Source: a virus | Lineage: Duplodnaviria; Caudoviricetes | Direction: 5' to 3' (one strand) | IMG/VR virus record: IMGVR_UViG_3300021255_000109 | Span: 96,001-160,000 of that record | Length of the DNA stretch: 64,000 bases | Made by a program: the position numbers and the translations under genes | Shown here: piece after piece, positions 1 through 54,717 of the stretch | How the letters are laid out: every line of letters begins with the position of its first letter | Position numbering within the stretch: the stretch's first letter is position 1 | Notes under the pieces: generated by a model | Seen by the model: only the letters and a program-made list of their open reading frames with translations | Told to the model about the DNA's origin: nothing | Databases searched by the model: none

Positions 1-39
1 AGCGATTTCGAGTGCCTGTGCGTAAGTCATGTTCTTCAT
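1..39 (-). CDS. Winged-helix DNA-binding protein, paralog 1 (5' part only; runs off the window)
   Basis: Reverse strand reads MKNMTYAQALEIA, nearly identical to the N-termini at 4851 and 7412; RBS and sigma-A promoter (73-101) upstream. Confidence 0.75.
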   Translation of the reverse strand, partial: MKNMTYAQALEIA

Positions 40-6384: not shown

Positions 6385-6828
6385 TTATTTCAGCCCCTTT
6401 AAGATTTCAATAATGTTGTTAACATCAAACGCTTTTCCGTTCCATTCTTTTCTATTGCGCTCTTCATCATCAAAGAGAACGTCTGTTTCATTGTGCCGGA
6501 AAGTGTCTTTACAAGTTCCGTATGAAACAATGTTGATTTTGTCGAAGGAAACACTTGCTAAATGAGTTGAAAGCCAAGCAAGTTTTGCAAGGGTCACAGC
6601 CTTGTCATATTCAGCAGTAGAGGTTTTCGACAGCCAAGAAATAATTTCGATTCGAAAACCTTTTCTTTGCAGATTATTCAGGACTCTTGCCAGTGCCTGA
6701 AGGTTTAACAGGGCTTTTGCGTTTGCATAGGGGAACGGGTCGCCGTTCCGCAGATAGTCAAGCCAGTTATCAACGCCGTACAGGTCGGCAATTGTTCCAT
6801 CCATGTCAAAGAAGATTGTAGTAGTCAT
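6385..6828 (-). CDS. HAD-family 5'(3')-deoxyribonucleotidase-like (NT5C)
   Basis: FFDMDGTIADL motif I; K..WL; LFDD motif IV. Confidence 0.8.
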   Translation of the reverse strand: MTTTIFFDMDGTIADLYGVDNWLDYLRNGDPFPYANAKALLNLQALARVLNNLQRKGFRIEIISWLSKTSTAEYDKAVTLAKLAWLSTHLASVSFDKINIVSYGTCKDTFRHNETDVLFDDEERNRKEWNGKAFDVNNIIEILKGLK

Positions 6829-8579: not shown

Positions 8580-8784
8580 AGTAGTATCCCCTCTCTTGTA
8601 GGCTTGTCTTTCTCTCAACCTTACATGAAGGATTATACCACACGGGCAAGCAGAAATCTATTAGCAAAATGTACAAAATTCAACAACTTTTTTATGCACT
8701 TTGTATAGTTCGCTCTTGTGCAATTTGACGGTAAAAAATGCACAAAATCCGTATTCATTTATTATGCAAATTGCACAAGAGGTG

Positions 8785-9162
8785 AATAGTCTGATAATTT
8801 ATTGAATAATCTGACAATTCAGAAAATTCAGACAATTCAATAAATAGTCTGACAATTTAGAAAATTCAGATAATTCTGAATTGTCAGATAATAAATCAAA
8901 TTGTGTATACAATTCAGAATTGTCAGACAATTTGCGGGAATTTTGAAAGCTGTCAGAATTGCGCGACAATTCCAGATTTTTTTCCGAATTGTGTACACAA
9001 TTTGGCGGCCGACCGCCAACGGCGGCCACAATTGGCGAAATTGTCTGAATTGCGCGACAATTTCGCCAATTGTGCGTGAATTGTCTGACAATTCCGGGAA
9101 TTGTCAGACAATTCTGAATTGTCAGACAATTGCGCAAAAAATTGCGAATTGTCTGACAATTC
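8785..9162. repeat. Array of about 16-18 AATTGTC(A/T)GACAATT / AATTGTGTACACAATT palindromes (CodY-box-like)
   Basis: Tandem and overlapping 15-bp palindromes, bounded by a GC-rich hairpin at about 9170-9197. Confidence 0.85.
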
Positions 9163-9393
9163 AGCAGAACCGGCCGCCAGGCCCGGTGGCGGCCGGCCCA
9201 TATGAAAAGCCCTCGGGTCATACCGACCTCAGGGGCAACTTCTCAAAGAGGAACTAGAGCAGGCGCGCTCCGTGATGGTTTAAGTATAGCACATTCAATC
9301 CAAAAAGTCAAGCACTTTTTTATTTTTTTTGTGGGTATCTTGATTTTCTGGAGGTCATTCCTTCCTGACGATTTTATCTTAACATATTTCGGG

Positions 9394-9764: not shown

Positions 9765-9920
9765 TCAAGAGCTTTTTAAAAACTTGTATTTTTCTTTCCG
9801 GGTATAGCTTCCTTTCCCTTTGCGGTTTTGGATCTGTCCGCCTTTCTTCTTAAACTTGAGGTACTCCTGCAATTCCTCAGGAGTCATTTTAAACATCCGC
9901 CTTATTTTTGTATTTTTCAT
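9765..9920 (-). CDS. ArfA-like (alternative ribosome-rescue factor-like) small basic protein (51 aa, not in ORF track)
   Basis: MKNTKIRRMFKMTPEELQEYLKFKKKGGQIQNRKGKGSYTRKEKYKFLKSS contains the ArfA hallmark KGKGSYxRK; AAAGGAG RBS and own promoter 9951-9979. Confidence 0.6.
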   Translation of the reverse strand: MKNTKIRRMFKMTPEELQEYLKFKKKGGQIQNRKGKGSYTRKEKYKFLKSS

Positions 9921-10007
9921 TTGAAAAATCTCCTTTCCTCTGATGATTCTATCTTAGCACACTTTTGATCTGTTGTCAAGTGTTTTTTGATGGAAAGATT
10001 GAGTTTT

Positions 10008-10415
10008 TTATAACTCAATCTTTCCGCCTTTAACCTCAAGCCAAATCGCCTTATATCCGGCCTTCTCCCATTGTTTACAATTAGCTTTCTTATCATCGAC
10101 CAAAATCCCGGCCTCTCTGATATAGTCCACTTTATTGCCATGTCCTACGATTGCAATTATATTTTCAATCGGGATTTCAGGCAACATTTCAGCAAGCCAA
10201 TCAATTCTTGCTTGTTTAGTTATTTCGTTGGCTACTATTGTGTTTATGTAAACCTGTGCGCCGTGCGCTATCAGATTTTTGACTATCTGGACATTTTCCG
10301 TAAACGGCTTCAAATTTCTAATGAAGTTATAGGTTAAGGACTCTGCCCGGTTATCTTTATTGTATACGCTGTGGAAATCTGCGAGAACGCCGTCAACATC
10401 AAAGTAGTAAGTCAT
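10008..10415 (-). CDS. Second HAD-family 5'(3')-deoxyribonucleotidase-like protein
   Basis: YFDVDGVLADF...ILVDD...N...W; start at MTYYF. Confidence 0.8.
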   Translation of the reverse strand: MTYYFDVDGVLADFHSVYNKDNRAESLTYNFIRNLKPFTENVQIVKNLIAHGAQVYINTIVANEITKQARIDWLAEMLPEIPIENIIAIVGHGNKVDYIREAGILVDDKKANCKQWEKAGYKAIWLEVKGGKIEL

Positions 10416-10604
10416 TTTTTTTATCTCCCTTCTCTCATCTGACAAGTATAGTATATCAAACGCCCGGGCATTTGTCAATAGTTTTTTGAAAGAAAATTAA
10501 ATTCGCACAATTTGGCAAAAATTTGCCAATTGTATACACAATTTGAAAAACGGCCGAGGTCAATTGTCTGACAATTGACCCCCTTTCTTTTAATTGCGTG
10601 TCGA

Positions 10605-16886: not shown

Positions 16887-16909
16887 TAGATTAATGGAGG
16901 TATTCAAAA

Positions 16910-17989
16910 ATGGTAAAATTAGATTATACTTTAGAATCTCCAGAGGAACGATTAGCATTAGTCGAAAAGATTCTTGAGGAAAACCCCGGACCAAATAATT
17001 CCTATTTAGAAATCTTGGCTGACTATCTGGTTCTTTGTATGGAGAAAAAAGAGAAAAAAGAGCGTAAAATTCTTACAGAGAATCGCATGGCAACAATCAA
17101 CAAAAGAGAAACATCATTTGAAGGGCTAGTTGCTCAATTTGAAAATGGTGAAGATGGCATATATAATTTAATAACAGATAACAAGAAAAATCAAATATTT
17201 TAGCCTAAGATTTCAATAACAAAAAAAGATTTAGAAGAAATTCCTTATTTATTATAGATTAGAGAAGCGATTGCGTTTTGGGAGGAAAAATTAAAGACAG
17301 CCTCAGGACGTAATGCTTTCATCATTAAATCAACAATTATTGATTTGCGGAAAGACCAATATATTGTAAAAGAAGCTTTTCGACAACCAGTAGTATTAAA
17401 AACAATTACTAGGACTCGTTCTTATATTCCTTTTGATGAAAGTATTACATTCGATAAAGATGGCTTTTGCGTGCCGCACGGCGTCTCATTCCTTGACCCA
17501 AATGTTTGTTCTGCGGTTTTGTGTAATTATTCACGTCTAAAAGAGGATTGTTGGGGTAATTTTGAAAAAGATACTTGGTACTTTATGGAAGACTTTGATG
17601 CGCTTTGCGGCAAAGCTCTTGCGGATTACCCTATGTACGAACGCATTGTCTAGCTCAAGATCGACGGTAAACAGAACATCGAGATCCAAGAAACTTTAAT
17701 TGATGAATTTGGAATTAAACATAGTTTAGAATACATTTCTAGCCTTTGGCGCAAAAAAATCCCAAGTCTTATTGCTTCTGCTGCAGAAGATGAGTATCTC
17801 GATTGGTATTATTTAGAAGTAGAAAAAGGTAAATATAAGCGTTGTAGTAGATGCGGTCAAATCAAACTTGCCCATAATAAATATTTTTCAAAGAATAAAA
17901 CATCAAAGGATGGCTTTTACAGTATTTGTAAATGCTGCCGCAATAAGAAAAAAGTCCCAGTTATGATTGCCGTGGACAAAAAAAGCTAA
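16910..17989 (+). CDS. Putative regulator with sigma-region-4-like HTH and C-terminal Zn finger (359 aa, 3 TAG=Gln)
   Basis: Fragments 16910 and 17345 are in frame across TAG; ends CSRC...CKCC then TAA. Confidence 0.7.
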
Positions 17990-35108: not shown

Positions 35109-35155
35109 TTAAAAACATTTATCTAACTTATTTTTTATATAGGTTAGGAGTAATC

Positions 35156-35192
35156 GGGAGTAGAGATTATCTCTACTCCCTTTTATTTTTTA
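35156..35192 (+). terminator. Intrinsic terminator
   Basis: GGGAGTAGAG-ATTAT-CTCTACTCCC plus T-tract. Confidence 0.8.
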
Positions 35193-35234
35193 TTTTGCAA
35201 AATAAAAAATTTTGGAGAGAAAGGAGCAATTATA

Positions 35235-38200
35235 ATGGCAGATAGAAAATTGTCTATTAGTCTTTAGTTTATTTCTGATACTCAAAAAGCAAAGGCTGAA
35301 ATTAAAGATTTACAGAAGTCATTAAATGATCTTTCTTTAGGTAAAAATACAAATAAATCTTTACTTACTTAGGAAATTAAAAGTGCTACAGAGGCTGCAA
35401 CTAAGTTGTAGATTGCATTAAACAGTGCTGTTAATGTTAATACTGGTAAATTAGATTTAAGTAAATTTCAAGAATCTCTTAAAGCAAGTAATATGTCTTT
35501 AGCAGATTATTAGAGAGAATTATTAAATTTAGGTCCAGATGGTGAACGAACATTTAGACAGCTGGCTTAGGCCATTACTGATGCAGAAGTACCATTAAAA
35601 AGAACAAATTCTGTCTTAAAAGAATTTGGAGAGACATTATCTAATACTGTAAAATGGCAAATTTCATCTTCAGCTATTCATGGTTTTATGGGAGCCATTT
35701 AGTCAGCGTATGGATATGCACAAGACTTAAATGAATCTTTAAATAAAATTCAGATTGTTACAGGTCATAATATAGATTATATGAGCCGCTTTGCGGACCA
35801 TGCCAATAAAGCAGCTTAGGCTTTAAGTTCAACTACTTTAGATTATACTGATGCTGCATTGATTTACTATCAATAGGGTTTATCAGATAAGGAAGTGCAA
35901 AAACGTACTGATATTACTTTAAAGATGGCTAATGCCGCAGGCGAAAGTGCGCAAACTATTTCACAACAATTAACGGCGGTATGGAATAACTTCGCAAAAG
36001 GCGGAGAAAATCTTGAGCATTTTGCAGACGTTATGACTAAATTAGGTGCAGAAACTGCATCAAGTACTTCTGAGATTGCTGATGGTCTTGAAAAGTTTGC
36101 TGCTATTGCTGATACTGTTGGTTTATCTTATGAGTATGCGGCTTCTGCTTTAGCTACTGTAACTGCTACAACACGTCAAAGCGCCGATGTAGTTGGTACA
36201 GCTTTTAAAACTTTATTTGCACGTATTCAAGGCTTAAATTTAGGTGAGACTCTTGAAGATGGTGTCGATTTAAATAAATATTCACAAGCTCTTGAAAAAG
36301 TTGGTGTTGACGTTTTAGATGCTAATGGCAAGTTAATTGCCATGGATGATATTCTTGATAGACTAGGTGAGCGTTGGGGAGAACTTACTAATGCTTAGCA
36401 GGTAGCATTGGCAGAGACTGTTGCTGGTACTCGTCAATATTCTCAAGTAATGGCTTTAATGGGCAATTGGGATTTCTTTAAAGAAAATTTGAATCGTGCA
36501 TAGAATTCTGATGGAGCATTACAAGAGCAAGCAGATATTTATGCACAAAGTTGGGAAGCCGCTAAAAAACGTGTATAGGCAGCAGCAGAAGGAATTTATA
36601 AAAGTTTAATTAACGATCAATTCTTTATTGATTTAAATAAAGGATTAGAAAAAGCTTTAAATGGAATTAATTTATTTATTCAGGGAATCGGTGGAGCAAA
36701 AGGTGCAATAACAGCATTATCTGGTGCTGTATTAACTTTATTTGGTGATAAAATAGCTGCCACTTTATCAAGCACCGCTTATAATATTAGTATGACATTT
36801 AAATCAGCACAAGATAGAATGATACAAGTAAAACAAGAAGTTAATCAATTAGTTGATAGTTATTATAGCGATATTGATACTTCTGAAAATGGTAATTTTA
36901 GAATATTTGCAGATGCTATTAAAGCAACTACTGCTGAACAAATGGCATATATTCAAAATGCTGAAAAAATGTCAGAAGCTGAGCGTCATATTAATGAAAA
37001 AATAATTGAACGTCATTAGTTAATGGTATCTAATATTGAATAGTTAACTACAGAATTAGCCGCATTAGAGAAAGCAAGCAATAATTCTGATTAGAGATTT
37101 AATTTTGCAACTCAAAAAGTAACAGATGAAGATATGCTTAATGCTAGTAAGCTTAATGCCAGTGAGCTTAATGAATATTTAGGTCTTTTACGTGAAGAAT
37201 TTAATGAAGTAAATTCGCAAGTTAGTGAATTTGCAACATTATCAGAAGTTGCATCAGCAGGTGCGGATCATTTTAAAGATAAAACAGTTGATGGATCTAA
37301 AGCTTTAGAATATTTAGATTAGTTATTAAAAGATAACGGCATTGATATTAATAGTATGTCAAATTCAGCTTAGAGTGAGTTTAGTAAAATTAAAGATATT
37401 TTTGAGAAAGTTGCTAATGGTGGAAAATCAGTTGGAGATGCATTTACTGAGTTGACAGCAAAAAGTGTTGAACTTGATTCAGAAACTTCAATGTTATCTG
37501 AAAGAATGGGAAGACAAATTGCTGATATGGAAAATTCCGTAACAACTACAATGAAAGATGGAGATGCAAAAACAAGACTATTAAACGCGATTAAACTATT
37601 ATCACAAAGTCATCAAGAATATAATGAAAAATTAAGAGAGATAAAATAGGCTTATGCAAATTTAGCGGCTGGTACTGAAGATCATGCGAAAAAGATGGAA
37701 GCAGTATAGAAGTCTTATGTAAAAGGATCTTAGGCTGTAGTGGCTTTTGGGCGTTCTGTGACCACTGGTATGAGTGCGGTTAATTCTGTTGCATCATTGA
37801 TTAATACTTGGAAAGATGGACAAAAAGATTTAGGAGAGTAGATTGCTGCTACTACTTCTGCTCTTGGAATGTTATTACCAATGGCAGTTACTTTTATTCA
37901 AACTTTAAAAACTATGAGTCCAACTTTACGCGTGATTTCTATTGCATTAACGGCAATTTCAGCGATTGGAACAATAGTTGGTAATATATTTAAAAGTATC
38001 AAAGATAATAGCCCAGAATAGCAATTAGAAAATTTAAAATAGGCAAATGATCAATTAAGTGAAAGTATTGCAAATGTTGATGAAAAGTATAAAAAATTAA
38101 CTGATCATTTTGATAAATATAAATCAATTACTAAAGCTTTGTCAGAATGTCAAAAAGGTAGTGATGAGTGGTATGAAAGTTTAAAAGATGTTAATACAAT

Positions 38201-41200
38201 TACACAAACTTTATTAGATGATTTCCCAGAATTAATGAGATATGGTTTTGAATATAATGAAGAGTTAGGCCGTTATGTTGTTGCTGAATAGTCAATAGAA
38301 TCATTACAGTCTTAGTTACAAGCACAAAAAGATTCATTAGAAATGGCTAAATCAATTAATTTAATAACGCAAGGATCGTTTCAATATGATAAAGACGTAT
38401 AGACGGCTGAATCAAATTATACAAAGAATTTATTAAGTTAGATTAATGAATTATATGGTACGAATAATTTTGCATTAGAAAAATTAAATTCATATATGCA
38501 AGCGGGATGGATGAATAATGAAGATTTAGTATACCTAATTGATCATTTTAATGAATTAGTGCAGTTAGATAATTATGATTTGGCTGATAAATTAACAGAT
38601 ACTTTTGATGGATTAACGTCGGAAACAGCGTCAATACTTGGTGATAGTCTTTTAGAATCTTTTGAAACTAAATTAAAATAGTTTGGACAACAACGTATGA
38701 CTGAAGTCGCCAAGCAAGAATAGGATAATATAGATAATCAATTATCTATTTATGATAAACAAAAAGGCGATTTAGAAGTATTAATAGCAAGAGAACGAAT
38801 GGCATTAGGAGAAGAACTTGGCAAATTAGATACTCAAGAAAAATTAGATAATTATGTTAATAATCATTATGCAGATACACAAGCATTGATAAAACAATCT
38901 AATGCAGCACAAGTAACTAATGAAGAGGCGGCAAATGCTTAGTCAAAAGCTAAAGTATCTTATAATGATGCAGTAAAAGCTTATCAAGATGTTGAAGATA
39001 AACGCAATCGTGATTTTTATTTATTATATTTACAGCGTGCAGCTGATATGATGGCAGGTATGCTAGCAGATAGAGATATTGAAGATAGAAATCAACAATT
39101 TAAAAATGATCGTAATCGAGAGTTAAGAGATCAATTGCTTGAAGTTAATGAATTGAGTAATGATGATGCAATAAAAAATTTAGGATCTGACGTAGCAGTA
39201 GTTGTGTCTTAGATGAAGAATATAGGCGGCGCGTATACTAAATATGTTAATATGTTATCTCCTGAAGCATTAGAGGCAGATCGTTTTTTAATAGAACAAA
39301 ACTATGCTGATGAACTACAAAAATTATAGTAGGATGTTGATATTAAAAAAGAAGAAATGGATGCAGCTAATAATGTTGCAGAAACAGCAAAAAATAATTA
39401 TGAAGAAGCTACAGCCGATACTATTCAATCAAAAACAGAAAAATTAATTAGTTTAACTGCTCAACTGGGAGAAGTATAGAATAAAATAGTAGATTTGGAA
39501 GAAAAACAAGTAAAATTATATACACCACAATAGGCTAGTGCTAAAGGAGTTACAAGCACATACCAAGATGAATTAGCAGTAGCTTAGAATAAATAGATTA
39601 CAACAGGAGCTGCTGCCGTTTCAACAATGGTAAGTATTTTAGACGAAGAACTTGCTACTACTTATGGGAAAAATGAAACATTTTGGTCAAATGCATATTT
39701 AGCCATTCAAGATGATATTCTAGATCTTACTGATAAGACATTGAATGAAATTACTGAAGGCAATGAAGATTTATAGAAAAAAATTGCTGAAAGTTATTTA
39801 TAGACTTTAAATGAAAATTATACTTTTACAGCAGTTAAATCTGATGGTACTATTGCATATAAAGATGAAAAAGGTGATAAGAAAGAACTTGAAGTTGGAG
39901 ATAAAAATTATATAGGATTACAACAATATGCTTTAGCCATGACAAAGTAGTATGATAAAGAAACTGGATTATTTGATGAAGATAAATTTTTAGATTGGTT
40001 AATGCCATCAGCTAAAAAGCAAGCTAATGCTATAGAAACTGCTTTAACAGGACAAATTGAATCAGCTACAAGAGAAAGTCTTGAATATATAATTCGTTTA
40101 AATGAAAGTGGAAATAAATTAACTCAAGCTACTTATAAAGATATTACAGATAGCTATGCGGCGCTTAAAGATTTAAATATTACAGGATTAGAAGAATTAG
40201 ATTATCAAGAAAAAAATAAGTTACAACATATTCGTGGCGATACTTATAAGATAATACATCAAATAAATGATGATATTGTTGATATGTTTGGAGAAAATGT
40301 ATCTGTTGAAGTCTTATCATACTTTTAGGATTTATTTGACTTTACTGATAAGTTACCAGATGATGGTGTACAAAGCGAGAAATTAAGAACATATTTTAAT
40401 TCGATTTTAAGCACACTAAACGAAGAAGAGTAGTTAGATTTTCTTAATACTTTTGCAAATATAGATTGGACTAAAGTTACTTCAGTAGAATAGATGTAGG
40501 AAATGTTATCAGGATTGGGTGTTGATTATGAAAAATTAAATATTGATGTTGCAACTTTTGTAGAAACAATGATGGGATTTAATTATTTACCTACTACATA
40601 TGTTGAATTAAATGATTTATTAACAAACATAGGAAAAACATTAGAAAAAATAGAATAGGGAGATATTATTGATGATGATCAATATGCAAAATTAAAAGAA
40701 TTATTTGGTGATGATGGAGATTTACAAAAATTCTTTTGGAAAACAGCTAATGGTTGGATGCTAACAGGGAATCCTGAAGAACTTGAAGATATGTATATTA
40801 CAGAGGGCATAGAAAAATTATAGAAGATGAGAATTGAGCAAGCAGCTAGCGAATAGATTGTTGTAGATGACAAAGGTAATATAATAAGCGGTGTAAACTC
40901 GGAAGAAGTTAGTAATTATTTACATGATGTATTAGGATGGGATGAAGAAGCTTTAAATAATAGTGAAGCACGAGAAGATGCTGCAAAAAAATTAGTTGAT
41001 GCATCTGAAAATATTAATATTAATATAGAAGACGCAGAACGAGCATTGTTATCTGTTGTTGATTCTTCAGATCGTTTAACTGAAGTATTAGAAATTTTTG
41101 AACATAATGGATACGAATTAAGTAAAGGTACTGATCCAAAGGCTTTTGAAACATTTTTACGTGCGCGAGAAGCATAGAATAAAGCTGGAGAAGGAGCTGG

Positions 41201-44200
41201 AGAAGGATTTGCTGGTACTAATAACACAGATGCTTTTTCATTAGAAGGATAGTCTTATGAAGGACAAAAATCAATTATTTCTAGTTCATATGCTGGTGCA
41301 AAAGATTTACGCACTATTGCTACATTAAATGATATTTTTGCGCAAGAAACATAGTCTAATTTAGAAACTGCACAATCAAAATTTAATCAATATGATTAGG
41401 CTCGTCGTACTGGTGCCCAAATTCCGGCTGAAGAAGCAGAATAGATTTTAGCAGATTATAATAATGCATAGCAATTAGTATTAGATGCTAAAGCTTTAGC
41501 TAAAAAGGCTATGGATGATGCAGTTGAGGCTATAAATAGTACGACTGATTTTGCTTATGCGTTACAACAAGGATTAATAACAAGTGATAATTTTACTGTA
41601 ATTTATGGATAGACAATATCTGAATTGAAAAAATTTGATGAAGTACAAGAGTTAGAAGATATGATTGCAGATGCCGCAGAAAAAAATCCTGAGATTAAAG
41701 CAACTTGGGAATAGACACAGACTAATAGTGTTGCAGCTTATGAAATGATTTTACAAAATACTCAAGACAGTATAAAAACGGTTGAAGATGCTGAAGCATT
41801 TTATAAATACTTTAAAGATAAGGTTGGTGAAGGTAATGGTCTTTTAAATTCTGCAATGCAAAATATATTAAAAAACATTGAAACATCAATCAAAACAGTA
41901 GATGATTATGCTACTTTAAGCGAAGAAATGCTTAGTATGCTGTAGAAAAATGGATTACTTACTTAGGTACAATAGAGAGTAGCAGCAACATTAAAGGATT
42001 TACCTTCATTATTTGAATGGGCGAATGAGAATAACATAGGCTCAGAAGGATTAGATTAGCAATTTTTAGCTCTTGCAGGATCAGCTAAATCTGGTGATGA
42101 AGTTAAAGCATTTAACGGAAAAGTAAGTACAGAAGCTTATAATCAGGGTTTATCTGACTTTGGTACAAAACAAATGGAATCTGCAAAAACTTGGGACGAA
42201 GCATATAAATTAATGAAAGAATATAATGTCGAGTTAAATGAAAAAACTATCCCTGGTTTATTAGAATTAACTACTACTTTATCTGCTTTTGATACTGCGG
42301 CAGAGGTTTTGACAAATGATTTAGGAGAAGATATTACTGCGTCTGAAACTTGGTTTTTAGAATATTCTAATGCATTAACAAAAATAGCAGAACAATATAC
42401 TCATACTTCTTTAGAAACAGAAAATTATAAATAGGCAGTTGACACTTTGGGTGATGCTTAGAAAATATTAGCTGATAAAAATGCTGAGCTAACAGAACAA
42501 TATAGTCGACATATACAAATTAATGGTGAATTAGTAGATCTTGATGAACGTGCTATTAAGAATTCACAAGATTTAAATTCATATATTGATGAACATACAA
42601 AAAAAGAACAAGAGCTAGTAGAAACGTTAAAAGAAAAAATGGAAGTGGCTCAAGCAGAATTACGTGCATCAATTTTAGCAGGTGAAGGAGCTAAAAAATA
42701 TGGTTTAACTGCTGAAGATGTTGAAACACAAGCAAAATTATTGGCAGAACAAAGTAAAAATGTCGCGGAAGGCTTTGAATTAGATATTGAGTCAGCTACA
42801 CGTATGGCTGTTGCAAATCAGCGTTTAAATCGTGGTATTAAAACTTTACATGATAATTGGGAAGAATGGTCTGATATTTTAAATAATACAGATCATGGTA
42901 TGCAAGATTATGCAGAAACTTTAAATGATGCTCGTGATGCTTTAGCAGACATGGTTGGAGCTATTGATGCTGATGCTATTTCATTAGATTTCTTAGATAA
43001 TACAACTGATTCTGGACGTCATCATTTGGAATTAATGGGCTTAGCCGCACAAGGTAATGTAGATGCAATTAATCAACTTGGTATTGCTGTTGGTTATGCC
43101 GCTATCGAAATGCTTGAATTTAGTGATAATACTACTCAAGTCTTTGATGAAGTGTGGTCAAATTGGTCTATGACTGCTGAGGAATTTACTGGTTATAAAG
43201 ATACAGTATTGCAGGGTATTACATAGTTAGAAGAAAGCGTTATTAATGGAACAATGACTGCCGGTATGGCTGTAGATGCTATGGGGTCAGATTGGGTTGA
43301 AGCTTTAAACCAAATGGCTCTTGCTACTGGTATGTCTGTAGAAGAGATGAATGCTTTTTTAAATGAGTTAGGTGTATAGGCAAAAGTAGAAGTACATGGT
43401 GAAAAAACCAAAATGCAAGTACCTACATATGAAGAATATTCTAAATCTGAAATAGTTGAACCAGAAGAATATGGTCGTCATATTATTGGTCGTAATGACG
43501 CTGGTGAACCAGAATGGGCAGATTATTTGAAAAAACCTGCAACCTGGAAAAGAACTACTTGGACAGTGCCTGGACCACCAACAGAAGTAGAAGGATATCA
43601 AGAAGTTGCTTAGATTTCTACTGTTGATAATCCAAAAACGCCATTAGTTACATATACTGGAACAAGTGGTGGAAATGTCGCTGCACCATCTCCGAAATCT
43701 ACTGCTTCTAGTGGAGGAGGCAGATCTTCAACTCCAAAAACACCGAAAGGCTCTTCTCCTAAGTCATCTAAAGGATCAGGTGATAAAAAGAAAGAATAGA
43801 AAGAAAAGAAAGATTTTGAAGATGAGTTAGATCGTTATCATGTAATCCTCGCGCAAATAGATGACCAAAAACGTAAATTAGATGAATTAGGAAAGGCAAA
43901 AGATAGAGCATATGGTAAACAAAAAGTAGATAATATGAATAAAGAAATCAAAGCGCAAAAAGAATTAAATAATAAAACACAACAATATATTGATGAAATT
44001 AAAGATTATTTAAAACTTGATAAAGACGCTATGAGTCCATATGGAGCTATTTTTGATGCTGATGGTAATATAACTAATTACGAAGATATTATGAAGCAAC
44101 AATTAGCTATTTATAATGCTGCTATTGATGCTTATAATGCATCTGCGCAAGAAGAAGCTGATAAAGAACGTCTTGAAGCCGCCGAAAAAGCTTATGAAAC

Positions 44201-47006
44201 ATTTAAAGAAAAATTAAAGCAATATGAAGATACTAATAACTTATTGCAAGAGCAATTAGTAGAATTACAAGATGGCTTAAAACAAGTATATGATGATGTA
44301 ACTGCTAAGAATGAATATATTATAGATTTAAAAATAAATGTTAATGATAATGAATTAGATTTCTTAGATTATTTACAAGATAAGATTGATAATTTTAATG
44401 ATGGCGTTAATGAGGTAAGTGAGAAATTAGCTAATTTAAATGATGAAACTGGTGCGCTTTTGAATAGATCTGATATTCATAACGAAGGCATTTCCAGAAC
44501 TCTTGGTCATTATTTAATTGATCAACTTGGTAAGAATGAAGATGAGGCTGCTGCTTTAATTGAGAAGTTTAAGACAGGAACATTAACTGATGAAGATATG
44601 AATTTATTTGCGGGAATCCCTGAAGCTGAAATGCAAAAAGTTCAAGAATATAAGAAAGATCTTCTTGATGATAATAAGAAGCTCATGGATAATATGCAAG
44701 AAGTTGTAGATACTGTAAATGATTCATTTAAACAAATCAGTGAAGACTTAGATGATGCAATGAAAGATATTGATCGTTCTACTGATGCGCTTGAGCATTA
44801 TGGCAATATGATTGATATAGTTGGTGCGGATTTCCTTGGTGTGACTACGGATATAGCTAATGCACTCGATCAGGCTGAAGTAGATGTTGCGAACGAAAAG
44901 GTTGCGGCAACGAGAGCTAAATTAGATGCATTAAAAGATGATTATGCTGAAGCTGAAAAATTATATCAAGATGCTTTAGACAATAACGATGCAGTTTTGG
45001 CAGAAAAATGGAAAAACGCATTGAAGGAAATGGACGATGAGGTAAATGGTGCAACTCAAGACTTCCATCAGGCTTGGGAAGATGCTTTACGTTCAGCGCA
45101 AGAAGCATTAGAGGCTATGCTTGATCGTGTTAAGAATGATGCTCTTGATGCTATTGCAGGTAATGTTCCATACAGTCAATTAGCAGATTTAATGGATCAA
45201 CAAGAAAAAGTAGATGATAGATTCTTAGATGAATATGAACAAATCTATGAAATGAGTAAGTTAAATCGTGATATTAATAACTCTATTGGAGATGCTGATA
45301 ATATCAAAGCTAAAGAGGCTTTAAGAGATCTTTAGAAAGAAATTAATAAACTTCAAGAAGATGGTAACGAGATGAGCCAATATGATTTAGATAATGCTCG
45401 TAGAAAATATGAATTAAAACTTGCAGAATTAGAGCTTGATAATGCTATGAATATTAAAGATACTGTAAGATTAAGTAAAGATTCTGAAGGCAATTGGTCA
45501 TATATCTATACCGCTGATGAAGAAAAGGTAGCTCAGGCAGAATAGAATTATGAAGATAAACTTTATGCTATGCAAAAAGCTAATGAAGAATATATTAACA
45601 ATATAGAGAACGAATTGGCCGGAGTACATGAAGAAATGCTTAATAAGATTGCTGAGATTCAAGCTGATTTAACTCTTACAGAAGAGCAAAAAGCGCAATT
45701 GATTCAGCAAACTTATGATTTCTATACTGAATAGGCTTCTTATTATACTGGAGAGCTTGGTAAGGCTATTGATAATAATAAAGAATTATATGATATTGAT
45801 TGGACTAATTATTCCGCAAAAACAAGGAAACAAAAGATTGGCGAAGATGATTTAACTGAATATATCGCTGATAATTATGGTTATAGGCTGGGTAATTTGG
45901 ATAATTATATTACGGATTTCAATAATACAATGCTGAGTGATATTACAGGTTTTGACACTCTTGATGGTTTCGAGCAAAATGCGCAGGCGGCTACTGAAAG
46001 TGCGGTTGCAGCTATGAACGCCGCTCATGACTAGTGGGCGGAGAACACAGAGACAACGATGCAGTTAGCTGGCACTTCTGTTGGTACTTTTGCTGAGGAT
46101 ATGATGAATGATGTTGATCAGACTATTGTACCTAAGGCTATAGAAGCTAAAGATGCTGTTGTAGATCTAGCAAATGCATCTGTTGATGAATTTGATAAAC
46201 TTGTAGGTCAAGCGCAAACCTGGCAAGATACTTATAGCACTTTAATGCAAGGTATTATTGATAAAAATGAATTGGTTATCCAGTCTATCAATGGTGTTGA
46301 TGAAGCTATCTCTAAATTAGAGGAATCTGAAGACGAGAATGTTTTAGGCCAAGACACTACTAATAAGATTTCTGAATCTGCTAATGCGGGTGCGGAAGCA
46401 GCTGCTACAGCTGCGGCAGCGGCACAAGCTGGAGCTGATTAGGCGGCAGCAAATGCGGCTCAATGGGCAAGAGTAATGCAGGTTTATAACTTAATTAATA
46501 GTGGTGCTGTTGGTAATCATGATACTGGACGTGTTCAAAATTTATTAAATCGTGGATATAGCCAGCAAGAGTATTCATTAGGACAGCAGTTAATCAATAT
46601 GGTTTATGATGCTGGCCTTGGTGGACGTGGTATGTCCATGGATGCTGCAAAGGCTGCATTAGGATTTGACTCTGGCGGTTATACTGGAGATTGGTCTGGT
46701 GCTAATGGACGTCTTGCTTTATTACATCAGAAAGAAATTGTTCTGAATGAAAGTGATACTGCAAACTTATTAAACGCAGTCGATATGGTGCGTTAGATTG
46801 CTAATTCTATTGACTTAAATGCGAAAGCAACTGAGTTTAATTTAGGTAATTTATCTGCGGCCGTGGGTATGCTGGGTGCGCGTTCTAGTGTAGACTAGAA
46901 TGTAACAATTACCGCAGAATTCCCGAACGTGACCGACCGCAATGAAATTGCTGAAGCCCTTAAAACTTTAGTCAATGAAGCATCTCAATACGCTAATCGC
47001 AAATAA
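35235..47006 (+). CDS. Tail tape measure protein (about 3,923 aa, many TAG=Gln)
   Basis: All 13 + strand track fragments from 35895 to 46476 share one frame; phage TMP domain (TRQSADVVGTAFKTLFARI); C-terminal FDSGGYTG..LH.KE.VLN. Confidence 0.85.
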
Positions 47007-47042: not shown

Positions 47043-47115
47043 TTGGTCAATTTATGATAAAGTAAGTATTCCAGTTTTTAAATTGTATAGATAATGAGAG
47101 AAAGGAGACAGTTAC

Positions 47116-50100
47116 ATGGCAGAAACTAACTATAATGATATTCTGTGTTAGGCTATTGATACAATAGTTCAATAGCGAATTTCTAATCTTACTTTTGATT
47201 AGACTATTATATGTACAATAGTTGATGACACAGATGCAAAAAATGGTCATTATATCGTAACTGATAAATCAGTTCGTTTTGATGCTTATTCCGAAAACAC
47301 AGAATATGTTACAGACGATGATGTCTATGTGACTATTCCCAAAGGTGATTATAATTAGACTAAAGTTATTATTAGTAAATATACAGCTGATAATAATTTA
47401 GATCCTTTAGTTTATATTAAACCTTTGGACTAGATGTTTATTATTACTGACGATTTGGTTCAAAAAGGCCAACCAAATGTCATATCAGCATCTATTTTGG
47501 CTAATGGGCGCAAGGTGTCTGAGAATAGAAAGACAACTACCCCTGGCCGCACAAAAATAATTTGGGAATATTTATTAAACGAGAGTAATAATACTGATAT
47601 TAAGAATAATGCGATCTTTGATACTCTTGGTATTCGCGCAAGTTTTAAATGCGATTTATTATCTACTTATAATGTGCGCCAAGGACATTATGGATTGGCG
47701 ATTACGTTATATTCAGATATGAATCCTGAGTCAGGCACAGGAAGTGTAACTGAGAATACAGTTTTATTTGATTCGGCAGAAATGTTTGGCAATCCGTATT
47801 CTTTTGTTACTTTCTTTGAGCAGCAAAAGATCATTGATATTAGTAAATTAAATAATATTACAAAGATTAGTATTGCATTATATTAGAGTGGAGATTTTCA
47901 GTATACTGAGTCTCTTGAAGCAAAAGATATGAAAGCATTGCCTTCAACATATGTAAACAGTGAAGGCGCAACTGAAGATTTAATGGATAATATCTTTGTT
48001 GGTAATGTTGAGATCTATTTTGGTATGAATATTGCTAACGTTTCAGATAATACGTTTTCTATCTATTGCAGTGATCATTCTACTTTTAGTATGGTAAAAG
48101 AGTAGATTGATGAAAATTATAATGTAAAAACTATTTTTCCTATTTGGTTTAATAAAGAGCCAGATACTAATAAATACATTGGATATTCTGATGGCGTTTA
48201 TAGAACATATGTAGATGCTGACGATCCAAATAGAATAGTTGGTGCTTAGTATTTAGAGGATAATTATCGTGCCAAGAAAGACTATTATGATAAAGGTGCC
48301 AGCTTAAATCAATTAGCATTAGAAGAGTAGGGTATACCTCCGGTTTAGCAAGTTTTATAGATATATGCGTACGCGCAAGACGCTGTAAAATTAATGACTA
48401 AATTGTATAATTTATTAAATAATAATTTAAAAAATATTTGTGATAAATTGTTAAGAGACGTTTCCGCTTATCAAACTGATGAACAAAAAACAAATTCTAA
48501 TACTGCATATTAGATATTATTTAGTAATAATCAAGATTATGCAATACTATTATCAGGATTAAGTGAAATATTGGATGAAAACAATGCTAATGGTTTTATG
48601 ACTACTGTTACTGATATTTTAAAAGAATATGGATAGGTATATTTGGACTTAGCGCAATGGTCAGATTTATCACAACCTTATGGTGAAAATGGCTACATGT
48701 ATAGAATTAACAATGTTTATTCTCTTGCGGCAAGTTAGATTAATGATTTACCTACTTATGTAGATGATTATTTTAGATCAATTCGAGATAATATTCCTAA
48801 TTCAATTGCGGCAATATATGATGCTTGGAATAATATGCAAAAAACAATTTTACAAGATTGCTTAGATGTGGATAATTAGATTAAAAATTTAATTGGTTCA
48901 TGGCAATCAAATCAAGTTGAAGCTCCAAGTATTGGCTATGAATTTAAAGATTTAAATACTTTATTCCAACAAGGCGGAGTATAGAGCTATGCTGAATCAA
49001 AAGAGATATTCGAATAGAAATATCAGAATAGATATTGTATTTATTGGTATAAATATGTTGAGAATTATTATGATGCTAATGAGCGTTATATGCCGAGCGG
49101 ATGGCAACGTTTATTAGGATATGAAAATATAGGATTGCCAAAAGATTGGGAGCCTGGTAATGATGGAAATGATTACTGGGTTGCTAAATCAAATGAACGT
49201 GTAACTGTAAAAATTGGTGATCCAACAGTAGAAACAGAATAGATATAGGCTATTTTAATTTATAACCATGAAGTTTTTAAGAGTAATATTTTAACTTTTA
49301 AAAATGAAGAATAGGTAATTGATGAGAATACGAAAAGTGCGGTTACCGGTCTGTGGATCGCATTGACTGATCAAACCGATGAACAACCTGATACATATTG
49401 TTCTAAGGAAACTTATCAATTATATGGTATGACAAATATGTTAATTAACTCAGCCGAACGGTACCAGCGCCGCAAGCTTCGCGCACGTTTTACTGGGCTA
49501 GATCAAGATGATAATTATTTAAAGAATAATTGTACTATCTATTGGTATATTCCTATTCATAGTACAATGCTTGATTGTAATCGAGATGAGTTAATCCAAG
49601 CAGGCTTTTCTTTTTATGATCCTAATGTTGATACTTTGCCTTCTGCGCCATATGGTAATAATTATGTAGAAGGCTATTATATGGTATATAGATAGATTGC
49701 CGCAGATACAGACGCAAACTTTTTATCATCCACAGAAATTTTTTATTAGATAAAGAATTATTTTATGCCAACCGCAACTAATAATACAATTAGATGTCGA
49801 GTGGTAAAGAATCGTCAATATGTCTATGATTCGGAATAGTTCTTTACTTTTGCTTCTTATGGTAGTAATGGAACAGATTATACTTTGTGTATTTTCCCAA
49901 GTACAAATCAAGCTGCAGTTAAGCAGGATTAGCAACTGCCTTTATCAATTGGAGTCTATGATTACAACAACGACTTTATGGAAAAAGAAAGCCAAAATAT
50001 TTAGCTAAGTATTTTAAATGGTTTTTCATATAACTCAGAAGGTGTTAAAACTGATCAATCTGCTTATTTTATTACTACAGGTCGTGACACAGAAGCATTT

Positions 50101-53100
50101 ATAGGACAAGCATTTAAACCCGGTTATGGTATTTTAAAAGGCACTGCAACTATTACTATTGATAAATTCTCAGATGCAGAAGATTCTGAGCGTGATGAAT
50201 CAATTACTAATAGTTTAGATAGCACAGATGATTCAAATTTAAAATATAAACAAAGAAATCGTACTGTTACTCTTGAATCATATTTTGCGATTCCTTGGGC
50301 TTCTGACGATTATTATATTGAAGGTCCATCATTTGTAATTTATAATTCAATGGGTTCAAGTCCTCAATATTATTCAGATCCTATTAAATTATTTAGTATG
50401 AAAACTAATAAGGAAATAGAGGGAGTAGTATGGAAGACTGAGTATTATACTAATCATAGCTTAAGTAGTGGAGAATCCGATTACAGTAATAAAGTAACTA
50501 CTTTAGTTAGTAATTATCTGCCTAAGATTAAAGAGATTGTAACTGAAGTAGATGGTGCTCAACGCAGAGAGTATAGATTAAGTGTACCAAGCATGTTTCT
50601 TTCTGGGAATGATTACTATTGTTCATTAGTTGCGTTTAACGCACAGAATGAAAGACTCTGGGTGCAACCGATCCACATGTTGTAGAACAGGTTTGACTCA
50701 CCAATGCTGAACGCATGGGACGGAGAGTTGACAATTGACGAAAAAAATGGTACAATTATGTCAGCCATGGTAGGAAGTGGTAAAAAGAATAGTGATAATA
50801 CTTTTTCTGGTGTATTAATGGGTGAAGTTGGTGAAAAGACTTAGCTTGGTAATACAACAGGTGAAGGATTATTTGGTTTTGATCATGGCGAGCAGAGTTT
50901 CGGATTTAAGACAGACGGCACTTCTTTTATAGGTAAAGCAAAACGCGGACGTATTGAATTTAATGGCAATTCTGGTACTATTGCAAGTGCTTCATATAAT
51001 CAAGAGCGAGATGATAATTTGCGCGTTGGTATGAAGATTGATCTTGATGATGGTGAGATTGATATGCGTGGGGCTTATATAGCTGACGCAGTAGATTAGG
51101 CAGATAGCCAAGCTGAAAATATCATAAATGCTCAATATACTCATAATAATGAGCAAGACGGATATGATAATGAAGTACGTTATAATCCTACTGGTAGTAG
51201 AGTAATGATTTCTACTAAGTCACCTTTCTTAGTAATTAAATCACCAAGTGTTTGGTATACTAATGAGAAGAGAGTTACTGTTGACGATTTTGGTAATAAG
51301 CAATTAGAAGTTGATCCAAATACGACATAGCGCAAAGCATATAATGATTTTTGGGATTCTATTGATTATTACAAGAGTGATGAAGCTATTAAAAATTTAT
51401 TAAATAATTATTGGGATATTAATGACAATTAGTATCCGCGCACTAATAATGCAATTAGAACTGCTGACGACATAGAAGATATGGATCAGGGTGTATATGC
51501 ACCTGTCCTTCGTACAATTTAGAGTTCAGCTCTTTTGAATAAAGGATATTCTAATGCTAATATCGATGATCTTGAAATGTTTACATAGCAAAAAGCTATG
51601 TAGAGTCAAGGGTTCATCGGTATTGCAATAGATGGAGATGATCCTGCTATGCAAAAAGGTGATTATTTATATCGTTATACTGAAGCAAGTGAATAGGGAA
51701 AAGATCATTGGAAGTATATTCCATCTTCAGAAGTTACTGAAGCTATGATTAATTCTTCTGGTACAGTTTGTTTGGCTCGATATAATGGACATAAAATTAC
51801 CAATTTGAATAGCTAGTGCGGTTAGAGAATGGTTGATGCTTCCGGATGGGTAAGCCCAAGATCTGGTGGCGCTGACTTGACTTTTAATAATATTAATGAT
51901 ACAATGACATTGATAGAAGCAATAAGAAATAGTAATGAAGATGAAGAATATCTTATTAAGTTAAAATTCTTAAAAGATGAAGATTTCTTACGATTTAGAG
52001 CTATTGCCAATATTGGTGATAATGTTGTTTCTATTACGGGATTTGTACCTCCAGCTGATGCGGATTCAGTAATGTATAAGCAATCAGATGGGCCGATAGA
52101 AAGTGTTTCTTATGAGTTTGGTGTAAAGCCAAGTACAACTTTATTACAAGTTGGAACTTCATCATATTTTATGCAATCTGAAGGCTTTACTGAAGGTAGC
52201 GATCCATATAAACGAGATGCGCAAGGTTTAAGATTTGATTTATCGGCTTAGAAATTAACAGCTTATGGCGGTTTTAAGCTCTTCGCGCAAGATGCAAAGA
52301 CCTTTAACAATATTGAAATTGGTAGTACAGGTACATTCTTACATGTTAAGTATAATATAAATCCAATAGAGGGTGATATTCCTGAATATGTAAGTTTGAT
52401 GAAAGTTACAACAAATGAATTTTTAATTCAATCTAAGGATTGGAGTAAAGCTGAAAAGACTGGTACTCAATTTGATGTTGGAAAAGGTATGTTTACATCA
52501 TATAGCTTTAATTTACATGCGGAAGAGGGTCGAGATAGTTCTAAATACCAAGGTTCGTATGTAAAGTTAAGTTCACGTGGTAATCCATTCTTTTAGATTC
52601 ATTATAAGGAGCATTAGATCCCTGTTGAAGAATTGACACCTGGTGTAGAAGATGTGATTGTATATGATACAGATTTAATGCATATATCTTCAAATAAATT
52701 TATTTTACAGTCAAAGGATTGGCGTTCCCCAAGAACAGCTGCTGATTTAGCTCCTGGTGAAAATTATAATGTTGTTAAAGAATACGCTAAGGGACGTGGA
52801 TTACAGTTTGATATTGCTAATGGTAAGTTAACAGCTTATAATAAATTTAGATTAATCGCATATGATAGTGATATTAGTAATCTTACAGATAATACCGCAG
52901 GTTCATATGTCGAATTATCAAGCACTGGTACTCCATATTTACAAGTATATTATCAACATAATAATGGAGAAGAACCAGACCCAGATGTTAGTCAAATTTT
53001 ATTGCGTATTTCTAAGAGAGATTTTTATTTAAACTCTTAGGATTGGCATTATAATGCATCAGATCCATCACAAGGCTCTGGTATGCATATAGATTTAGCT

Positions 53101-54717
53101 AATGCTAATATTATCGCCTATAAGTTTCATTTATATGCGTTTAATAACACTCAGCGCTATACGGGTTCATATGTAAAATTAAGTAGTGAAGGCACAACAA
53201 ATAATCCATTTTTCCAAGTACATTTTAAAGATGTCGGAGATGGTACTGACCAGAATTTTATTCCTAAAGATTTGAATTTGGTTATGCTTACTTAGAATCA
53301 ATTTCTTATTCAGTCTTAGGATTTTAGATTCTCAGCAACTAATTTAGCAGCGTGCTCAGGCATTCGTATGAATCTTGCGAATGGTCAATTTTTAGGTTAT
53401 AATTTTGGCTTTTCTGCATATGATAACGGTAGCGGTAATAATGGACGTTATATGGGATCACATGTTATTATAAATAGTAGCGGTAGTCCATATATTAGAG
53501 TACATTTTACTGATTATGGAGCAGGCAATAATCCTACGACAACATCTGGTTTAACGCCAATTAGAAATTTAGATATTGTTAATATTACAAAAGATAATTT
53601 TATAATACAATCTCATAATTGGAACACTACAAATGGAACTGGCTTAAAATTTGATTTAACTAATGGTTAGCTTTTAGGTTATAATTTCCAATTATAGGCA
53701 AGGCGCACTAGTAATCCAGCAGGCACTGTTACTATTAGTTCTGCTGATAGCACTTATCCAATTAAAGTAACAAATGGGTCAGATAAAACATTTGCAGTTA
53801 AATGGGATGGTTCATTAGAAGCCAATGCCGCAAGTATCACAGGAGCTATTACTGCTACATCAGGTACTTTTACAAATGTTAATATTCAAAGTGGTACTAT
53901 TGCTGGATGGCGTATTAACGGCAACAGAATCGATGCAAGTAATGGCACAATTTATTTAGACAGTAGTACAGGAACTATAAGTGGTGCAAAAGTTAATGGT
54001 GCTACAATTAGTGGCGGCACTATGAGTATTACTGGTTCTGGAGAAGGATCTGGTAGTTTTGGTGTTTCAAATAGTGGCGTTTTAAGCGCTACTGGAGCTA
54101 ATGTTACTGGAACAATTAATGCGAATCAAGGCACCTTTAATAATGTAGATATACAAAGTGGTACTATTGCAGGATGGTAGATCAATAGCACTACATTAAG
54201 TAAGGGCGATGTAATTTTAAATAGCTCTACTGGACAAATTTCTGGTGCAGCTATTGTTGGTGGTACTATTAGTGGTACAACTGTATCTGCTGAAAGTCTT
54301 AGATTTACTCTTTGGAATGGAGCTACTAGTGAGCTAAAATAGTTCGGTATTTATTCAATACCGAATTTTAAATGGAAAACGACAGTAGGCGGTTCAACTG
54401 TGTTCCGGCCTACAGGTTCAATATCAGTAAGTGTAACTCCTGGATGGAGTGTTATTGCTGGTTATGGTGCTATCGCAGTTAGAGATAGTTTACCAAACGG
54501 TAATGTTATTGGATATATTAATACTCAAGATATTATATCTTCAATTACATTAGGAGCAAGTGGTTCTGCTACTTTTACTGGAGATTAGATTACGTTATCT
54601 ACTACACGTGAGGCTGTTGGTGATAGATGGCAAATAGCTGGTTTAGTATATGTAGGTGATATTTCTGGTGGATCACAAGAAACATCAGTTTTATAGACTC
54701 AAAGCGTATTTGGGTAA
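47116..54717 (+). CDS. Large tail tip/central fibre protein (about 2,533 aa, TAG=Gln)
   Basis: Nine fragments in one frame; internal beta-repeats; G/T/S-rich beta-helical C-terminus. Confidence 0.75.

Follow-up and report, generated by a model that had tools for sequence, protein, structure and literature searches.

A phage-borne family of small basic proteins, divergent homologues of the ribosome-rescue factor ArfA

The early region of a large TAG-recoded phage contains a 51-residue gene whose product is a divergent homologue of the ribosome-rescue factor ArfA ("mini-ArfA") and probably acts in an ArfA-like manner; by curated criteria it is not a member of the Pfam family PF03889. A probability of roughly 60% is given to the reading in which this early gene is expressed and its product, a stripped-down ArfA, would free stalled ribosomes via a host release factor. 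ArfA is also named YhdL (Pfam PF03889), and its PDB entries include 5MDV, 5MDW, 5U4I, 5H5U, 5MGP, and 7OJ0.

The gene is in the window, i.e. the whole 64,000-nucleotide stretch analysed here (positions 96,001 to 160,000 of IMG/VR record IMGVR_UViG_3300021255_000109). The record is a complete phage genome of 180,778 bp with direct terminal repeats and 35% GC. It has 33 tRNAs including tRNA-CUA, a tmRNA, a ROOL RNA, and a single copy of the ArfA-like gene. The features of the gene are as follows, in window coordinates.

9765..9920, minus strand: ArfA-like coding sequence, 51 aa; ATG at 9918-9920, TGA at 9765-9767
9951..9979, minus strand: sigma-A-type promoter of the ArfA-like gene; TTGACA (starts at 9979), 17-nt spacer, TAAGAT (ends at 9951), extended -10 TG
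9930..9938, minus strand: ribosome-binding site GGAAAGGAG, read from the sequence; AGGAG core at 9930-9934, 9 nt 5' of the ATG
9771..9875, minus strand: codons 16-50, matched by hhalign to E. coli ArfA 15-50
9849..9881, minus strand: codons 14-24 (PEELQEYLKFK), predicted short α-helix, the likely counterpart of ArfA helix 15-24 at the decoding centre (AF2, block pLDDT about 88; hhalign; PMC8012679)
9783..9821, minus strand: codons 34-46 (KGKGSYTRKEKYK), most conserved block of the family, corresponding to the ArfA loop and basic tail of the mRNA entry channel (family alignment and comparison with ArfA; PMC8012679)
9740..9768, minus strand: promoter of the next early gene; TTGACA, 17 nt, TAAAAT

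The sequence-only reading had reported a basic 51-residue ORF with a KGKGSY-type motif at 9765-9920 on the minus strand, preceded by its own promoter and ribosome-binding site. The coordinates, the length, and the motif all match (NRKGKGSYTRKEKY is residues 32-45 of the peptide), and both TTGACA-17-TAAGAT and the AGGAG core were located. The peptide has 17 Lys and Arg residues against 4 Glu, with a net charge of about +13. In the promoter scan, the promoter was near-consensus and was one in a series of sigma-A promoters along the minus-strand block. The -35 hexamer of the promoter that follows takes in the TGA stop of the gene, and no terminator was found between the ArfA-like gene and the next one. 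The gene belongs to an early block in the standard code, 25 kb from the tRNA array that includes the suppressor tRNA. The adjacent early genes show no functional module: two are NT5C-like nucleotidases and the remainder have no assigned function. The two nucleotidase genes (10008-10478 and 6385-6828, both on the minus strand) are paralogous 5'(3')-deoxyribonucleotidases of the NT5C type, and the former is immediately upstream of the ArfA-like gene. A gene-poor region about 600 bp downstream of the ArfA-like gene (window 8780-9165) is dense in AATTGTCWGACAATT-type palindromes with the variants AATTGTGTAYACAATT and GACAATTTCGCCAATTGTG, and another copy of the palindrome is a terminator-like hairpin at 10556-10582.

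The ORF is a genuine gene under purifying selection. A word-based search gave four close relatives, and an exhaustive search of 1.84 billion representatives with an HMMER profile gave 236 clusters (50% identity) at E≤1e-3, including 55 at E≤1e-10. The members are nearly all 45-60 aa in length, and the consensus MDKRIFKKxxEELQxYLxFRRRGxxVxNKKGKGSYxRKxKH is common to them over the entire length. Codon comparison of 18 distinct copies gave a median dN/dS of 0.24, with values below 0.5 in 33 of the 35 computable pairs. The motif is therefore no chance match, since 236 clusters carry it within similarity across the whole length and nearly all computable pairs show this constraint. In 83 members, Lys34, Gly35, Lys36, Gly37, Ser38, and Arg41 are at least 90% conserved; these are the columns of the channel-binding loop. 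The hallmark loop is altered in divergent subfamilies of close relatives: it is KKGKGMEYDRAKEKEKS in four phages (locus coordinates 1501-1641) and KKSYNRKQKHKK, without KGKG, in one standard-code close relative. Such subfamilies are natural variants for asking which tail residues matter.

The ArfA-like identity proposed by the sequence-only reading holds as homology, as judged from sequence comparison: ArfA was the only protein found in the PDB by the family profile, and hhalign gave a probability of 95%. Of the Pfam families, ArfA matched the window protein best (E 0.0014), at profile positions 29-44 only. The suggested search against Pfam ArfA thus named the expected family, but at 18.5 bits the match is under the curated gathering threshold of 25.5 bits. 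Ten other members checked singly scored 17.6-24.8 bits, all sub-threshold. At E≤0.01, 69 of the 83 members match PF03889, the best with an E value of 5e-8. When the family profile was compared with all PDB sequences, the top six matches were E. coli ArfA chains (E 1.3e-5 to 1e-4) and the next match had an E value of 0.72. The BrfA chains in the PDB were not matched by this profile at E≤10. The Pfam family DUF7230 matched neither the window protein nor the family members, and tblastn with the family found nothing in GenBank phage genomes. Neighbours in the ESM Atlas fall in clusters without names, one of which has 12% PF03889 and Bacillota labels.

The family was also aligned by hhalign with an enterobacterial ArfA alignment built from E. 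coli arfA of NC_000913.3. The match had an E value of 3.5e-8 over 33 columns and paired window residues 16-50 with ArfA 15-50, so that the similarity reaches past the short motif. Residues 34-45 (KGKGSYTRKEKY) are identical to ArfA in the columns Lys34-Ser38, Arg41, Lys42, and Lys44. Tyr stands in for the His of the ArfA KH motif (KY); some enterobacterial ArfAs also have Tyr. The pairing of window 16-31 with ArfA 15-31 contains gaps of three and two residues and has low per-column confidence. The N-terminal 15 residues have no similarity to ArfA 1-14 detectable by hhalign.

A short, very basic protein of this kind might instead be a small lysine-rich early protein with a nucleic-acid-binding or regulatory role away from the ribosome, in which KGKGSY arose by convergence or low-complexity bias. 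Consistent with this, a single-sequence phmmer search of the PDB with the window protein found nothing, ArfA included, NCBIfam gave no match to it, and its residues 12-31 weakly match DUF4224 (E 0.004). Such a protein seems highly improbable, since the profile and profile-profile searches single out ArfA with a wide gap to the next match. The conserved columns include Gly, Ser, and Tyr besides Lys and Arg, which argues against a composition effect, and the DUF4224 match was judged spurious because only 3 of the 83 members have it.

In the ribosome-bound state, 46-48 residues of ArfA are visible (PMC8012679). Residues 15-24 are a short helix located at the decoding centre, Gln27-Glu30 augment the β-sheet of RF2, and the C-terminal loop together with the KH motif fills the empty mRNA entry channel (PMC8012679). 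Residues 1-14 are ordered only once RF2 opens, and the A18T substitution blocks activation of RF2 (PMC8012679). The element order and the size of the phage peptide seem to match this active part of ArfA: an N-terminal tail of 10-15 residues, a helix, a strand, the KGKGS loop, and the K-H/Y tail. The AF2 model has a helix at residues 14-24 and coil elsewhere, with a mean pLDDT of 73.7. A complex prediction of the family with B. subtilis RF2 gave a score of 0.05, which is below the mark and counts neither way.

Only the C-terminal two thirds of the peptide are demonstrably ArfA-like. The column equivalent to ArfA Ala18, where the alignment is uncertain, is occupied by Glu in the window peptide and by Glu, Gln, Leu, Met, Ala, or Gly across the family; a bulky residue at this position recalls ArfA A18T, which is inactive for RF2 activation (PMC8012679). 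The tail also varies among subfamilies: KGKGSYNRQDFKKGE, KKGKGMEYDR, and KKSYNRK without KGKG. These features would suit a peptide whose tail docks in the empty mRNA channel and whose remodelled N-terminal half fails to activate RF2. Its effect might then be to block tmRNA-SmpB, to occupy vacant ribosomes for host shut-off, or to act with RF1 or a phage protein as partner; RF1 and RF2 are both used by ArfT (PMC8012679). A ribosome binder with an outcome of this kind is distinctly unlikely. Conservation of the strand and helix region extends through the whole family, and this region aligned to the part of ArfA that contacts RF2. A place among tRNA genes hints that the peptide aids translation and does not inhibit it, and the phage's own tmRNA argues that rescue is wanted, not blocked.

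From these comparisons we infer ribosome binding, recruitment of RF2, and a benefit to the phage. In the preferred reading, that of an ArfA homologue working through a host release factor, the target would be a 70S ribosome that has stalled on reaching the 3' end of an mRNA cut short or lacking a stop codon. Its vacant mRNA entry channel would take up the invariant KGKGSY loop together with the basic RKxK(H/Y) tail. At the decoding centre would lie the helix (EELQEYLKF) and the short strand that precedes the loop (QIQN in the window peptide, xVxN in the family); these would recruit a class-I release factor of the host, most probably RF2, after which the nascent chain would be hydrolysed and the ribosome returned to the pool. 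The likely benefit would be to regain ribosomes held up on host mRNAs that phage nucleases, or host defences that cut mRNA or tRNA, have degraded or cleaved during infection; ribosomes on messages read through at TAG could be a further source. SmpB and the release-factor domain (PF00472) were both searched for in the genome of the window's phage and neither was found, so the phage seems to encode no RF2 partner of its own. That a Firmicute RF2 would be recruited is not to be taken for granted, because ArfA and BrfA each require RF2 from the same species (PMC8012679).

Synthesis from the strong host-type promoter would be early and constitutive, not limited to saturation of tmRNA, because the gene ends in an ordinary stop codon and contains neither an internal terminator nor a hairpin of the RNase III type. 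A scan of the window found no terminator-like site on the minus strand inside or just 3' of the ORF, and no unusually stable RNA fold was found in or just after it (fold z-score -0.85). The phage gene differs in this respect from bacterial arfA and brfA, and tmRNA-coupled non-stop regulation is therefore absent. For the window copy, such regulation was rejected, because there is a TGA stop, no internal terminator or hairpin, and no stop-less run into a tRNA. Copies in relatives likewise close with normal stop codons, 6-24 nt ahead of the following tRNA, and all copies in the loci inspected had a stop. In several TAG-recoded carriers (locus coordinates about 10001-10129, plus strand), the ArfA-like gene terminates in TAG, and after the code switch its product would be 7-10 residues longer. 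These copies were considered as a possible switch, and this was rejected because read-through would add just 3-10 residues.

The likeness to ArfA would thus extend over ArfA 15-50, including the helix, the RF2-contacting strand, the KGKGSY loop, and the RKxK(H/Y) tail, with the spacing and order of the elements kept within a net difference of one residue. The strong basicity and the family length of 45-60 aa, against the 46-48 ribosome-visible residues, also agree. Unlike ArfA, the phage peptide has no C-terminal hydrophobic extension and its first 15 residues are unrelated; furthermore, its gene is carried by large Firmicutes phages, usually inside tRNA arrays, and not by a proteobacterial chromosome. 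BrfA (YqkK of the B. subtilis group, PDB 6SZS) is comparable in being a small rescue peptide that depends on RF2 and occurs in a Firmicute, and its tail makes a K-H type contact within the mRNA channel (PMC8012679). It is an example of a Firmicute RF2 recruited by a small peptide, but it is translated from non-stop mRNA, whereas the phage gene is not. The phage-encoded ArfA g10 of Citromicrobium phage RXM (PMC8953757) is likewise a short ArfA-related phage gene, whereas the present family is phrog_37108-like and comes from low-GC Firmicutes phages. ArfT of Francisella tularensis, of about 40 aa, is also a minimal release-factor-dependent rescue peptide; it is set apart by its description, in that it can work with either RF1 or RF2 and an independent origin is ascribed to it (PMC8012679).

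The family is phage-borne. The gene was found in 39 IMG/VR loci, mostly on contigs of 50-190 kb with 30-42% GC. Bacteria gave two matches in a set of 185,579 species with one genome apiece (a 2.6-kb MAG contig of Eubacteriales and another, also of 2.6 kb, of Acutalibacteraceae), and 3 of 400 Clostridia-class genomes had a match. It should be noted that the IMG/VR and bacterial-genome scans used a 5-row alignment and reach closer relatives only. The carriers are large phages with portals like those found in phages of Firmicutes. The portal protein of the window's phage has relatives in large siphophages of Firmicutes (Enterococcus EF1 and VRE9, Brevibacillus Sundance, Bacillus PBC2, and Clostridioides phiCD211) and also in human-gut Phass-1. 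The gene is missing from about half of the complete close-relative phages and is therefore dispensable. ArfA is found in Gammaproteobacteria and some Betaproteobacteria only, BrfA in ten Bacillus species, and most Firmicutes have no ArfB (PMC11633108). The presumed hosts, gut Firmicutes, are thus normally without ArfA and ArfB, and the family would bring an ArfA-type factor to hosts that have none.

A same-strand tRNA gene lies within 2 kb of the ArfA-like gene in 19 of 26 distinct sequences from IMG/VR carriers. The closest ones, for tRNA-Glu, tRNA-Val, and tRNA-Leu, are 6-32 nt from the gene, and the extensions of many database members are translated tRNA genes. In the window's phage, the tmRNA (genome 62707-63008, minus strand) is full length, with an RF00023 score of 93 bits and the tag peptide ARYQYQMAA* given by ARAGORN. 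Beside it, within the tRNA array, is the full-length ROOL RNA (RF03087, 341 bits; genome about 63691-64315, minus strand). Co-occurrence of tmRNA with the ArfA-like gene was considered and rejected: among 37 genomes of carriers and relatives, only the window's phage has a tmRNA above the gathering score. A conserved "rescue kit" is therefore absent from these phages.

TAG-to-Gln recoding of the window's phage, which the sequence-only reading had deduced, is confirmed, with three lines of evidence in agreement. First, plus-strand late ORFs of 3950 and 2539 aa (the giant ORFs at 35154-47006 and 47098-54717) are open only when TAG is read through. Second, the portal gene of the window has nine in-frame TAG codons, and TAG in portal genes aligned with Gln of standard-code relatives in 368 of about 650 alignment cells. 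Third, the genome carries a tRNA-CUA (genome 61228-61316, minus strand). Its length of 89 nt is suggestive of a long variable arm, though TAG aligns mainly to Gln.

The sequence-only reading had further proposed that the peptide is an accessory of code switching. In this case it would chiefly clear ribosomes that reach 3' ends after tRNA-CUA reads TAG as Gln, and it would be selectively kept in recoded phages; this is a special case of the ArfA-homologue reading and does not exclude it. The rationale is sound, because suppressor tRNAs are known to yield trans-translation substrates through read-through (Ueda et al. 2002, cited in PMC3985003). The window's phage is itself recoded and has both tRNA-CUA and tmRNA, and an RF2-dependent route would be untouched by loss of termination at TAG. 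Furthermore, among close portal relatives on long contigs, taken together with the window, the gene was found in 12 of 24 recoded phages against 1 of 15 with the standard code (Fisher p 0.006), and a second sample gave 6 of 11 against 0 of 2. The excess weakened to 9 of 13 against 1 of 7 in genomes at least 90% complete (p 0.06) and to 5 of 7 against 1 of 5 in dereplicated lineages (p 0.24).

Other results also speak against the accessory role. On the portal tree, recoding changed at least four times and carriage at least eight times, which leaves only 3-4 independent contrasts, and the sign test was non-significant. Five of 12 near-complete recoded relatives are without the gene. Among carriers with a phrog_2739 portal, in-frame TAG was found in 6 of 23 records and in 5 of 12 dereplicated lineages; the portal genes of the other 7 of 12 are TAG-free, giving at least seven standard-code carrier lineages. 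The location in the early standard-code block, away from the tRNA array, is also not what this role would lead one to expect. A link with recoding is thus possible but not proven, and the gene is clearly not limited to recoded phages. As the chief role of the peptide, service to the altered code seems rather unlikely.

For the ArfA-homologue reading, annotated phage ArfA genes are already known (phage RXM g10, PMC8953757). What would be new is a large sub-threshold branch restricted to big low-GC phages of Firmicutes, the placement of its genes within tRNA arrays, and its loss of non-stop regulation; the excess in TAG-recoded lineages is suggestive but unproven. ArfA-type rescue has been thought to be confined to Gamma- and Betaproteobacteria, with BrfA in a few Bacillus species. 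A phage-only branch in gut Firmicutes phages would show that release-factor-recruiting peptides are mobile and far commoner than surveys of genomes have indicated, and that big phages pair ribosome rescue with tRNA arrays, sustaining translation in infection. In addition, the family would offer short natural variants of a ribosome-docking tail and an RF2-contacting segment for structure-function work. A bolder proposition, which we regard as fairly doubtful, is that an unregulated, phage-specific ArfA branch brings RF2-dependent rescue to hosts without one and is preferentially kept in TAG-recoded lineages, which would be flooded with read-through non-stop complexes. If so, the peptide would be a functional part of the recoding toolkit beside the suppressor tRNA, plus the tmRNA in the window's phage. 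If the trend toward recoded phages holds, it would provide a testable tie between stop-codon reassignment and ribosome rescue.

Two further observations were made on the genomes compared. The record IMGVR_UViG_3300032167_000002, of 402 kb, has two portal genes about 204 kb apart and is probably a concatemer or a mis-assembly, not a 400-kb genome. In the late region of the window, the protein encoded at 16895-17986 (plus strand) matches the phage sigma-factor family phrog_5767 with an E value of 1e-51, and its C-terminal 50 residues show an HNH/endonuclease VII-like match.
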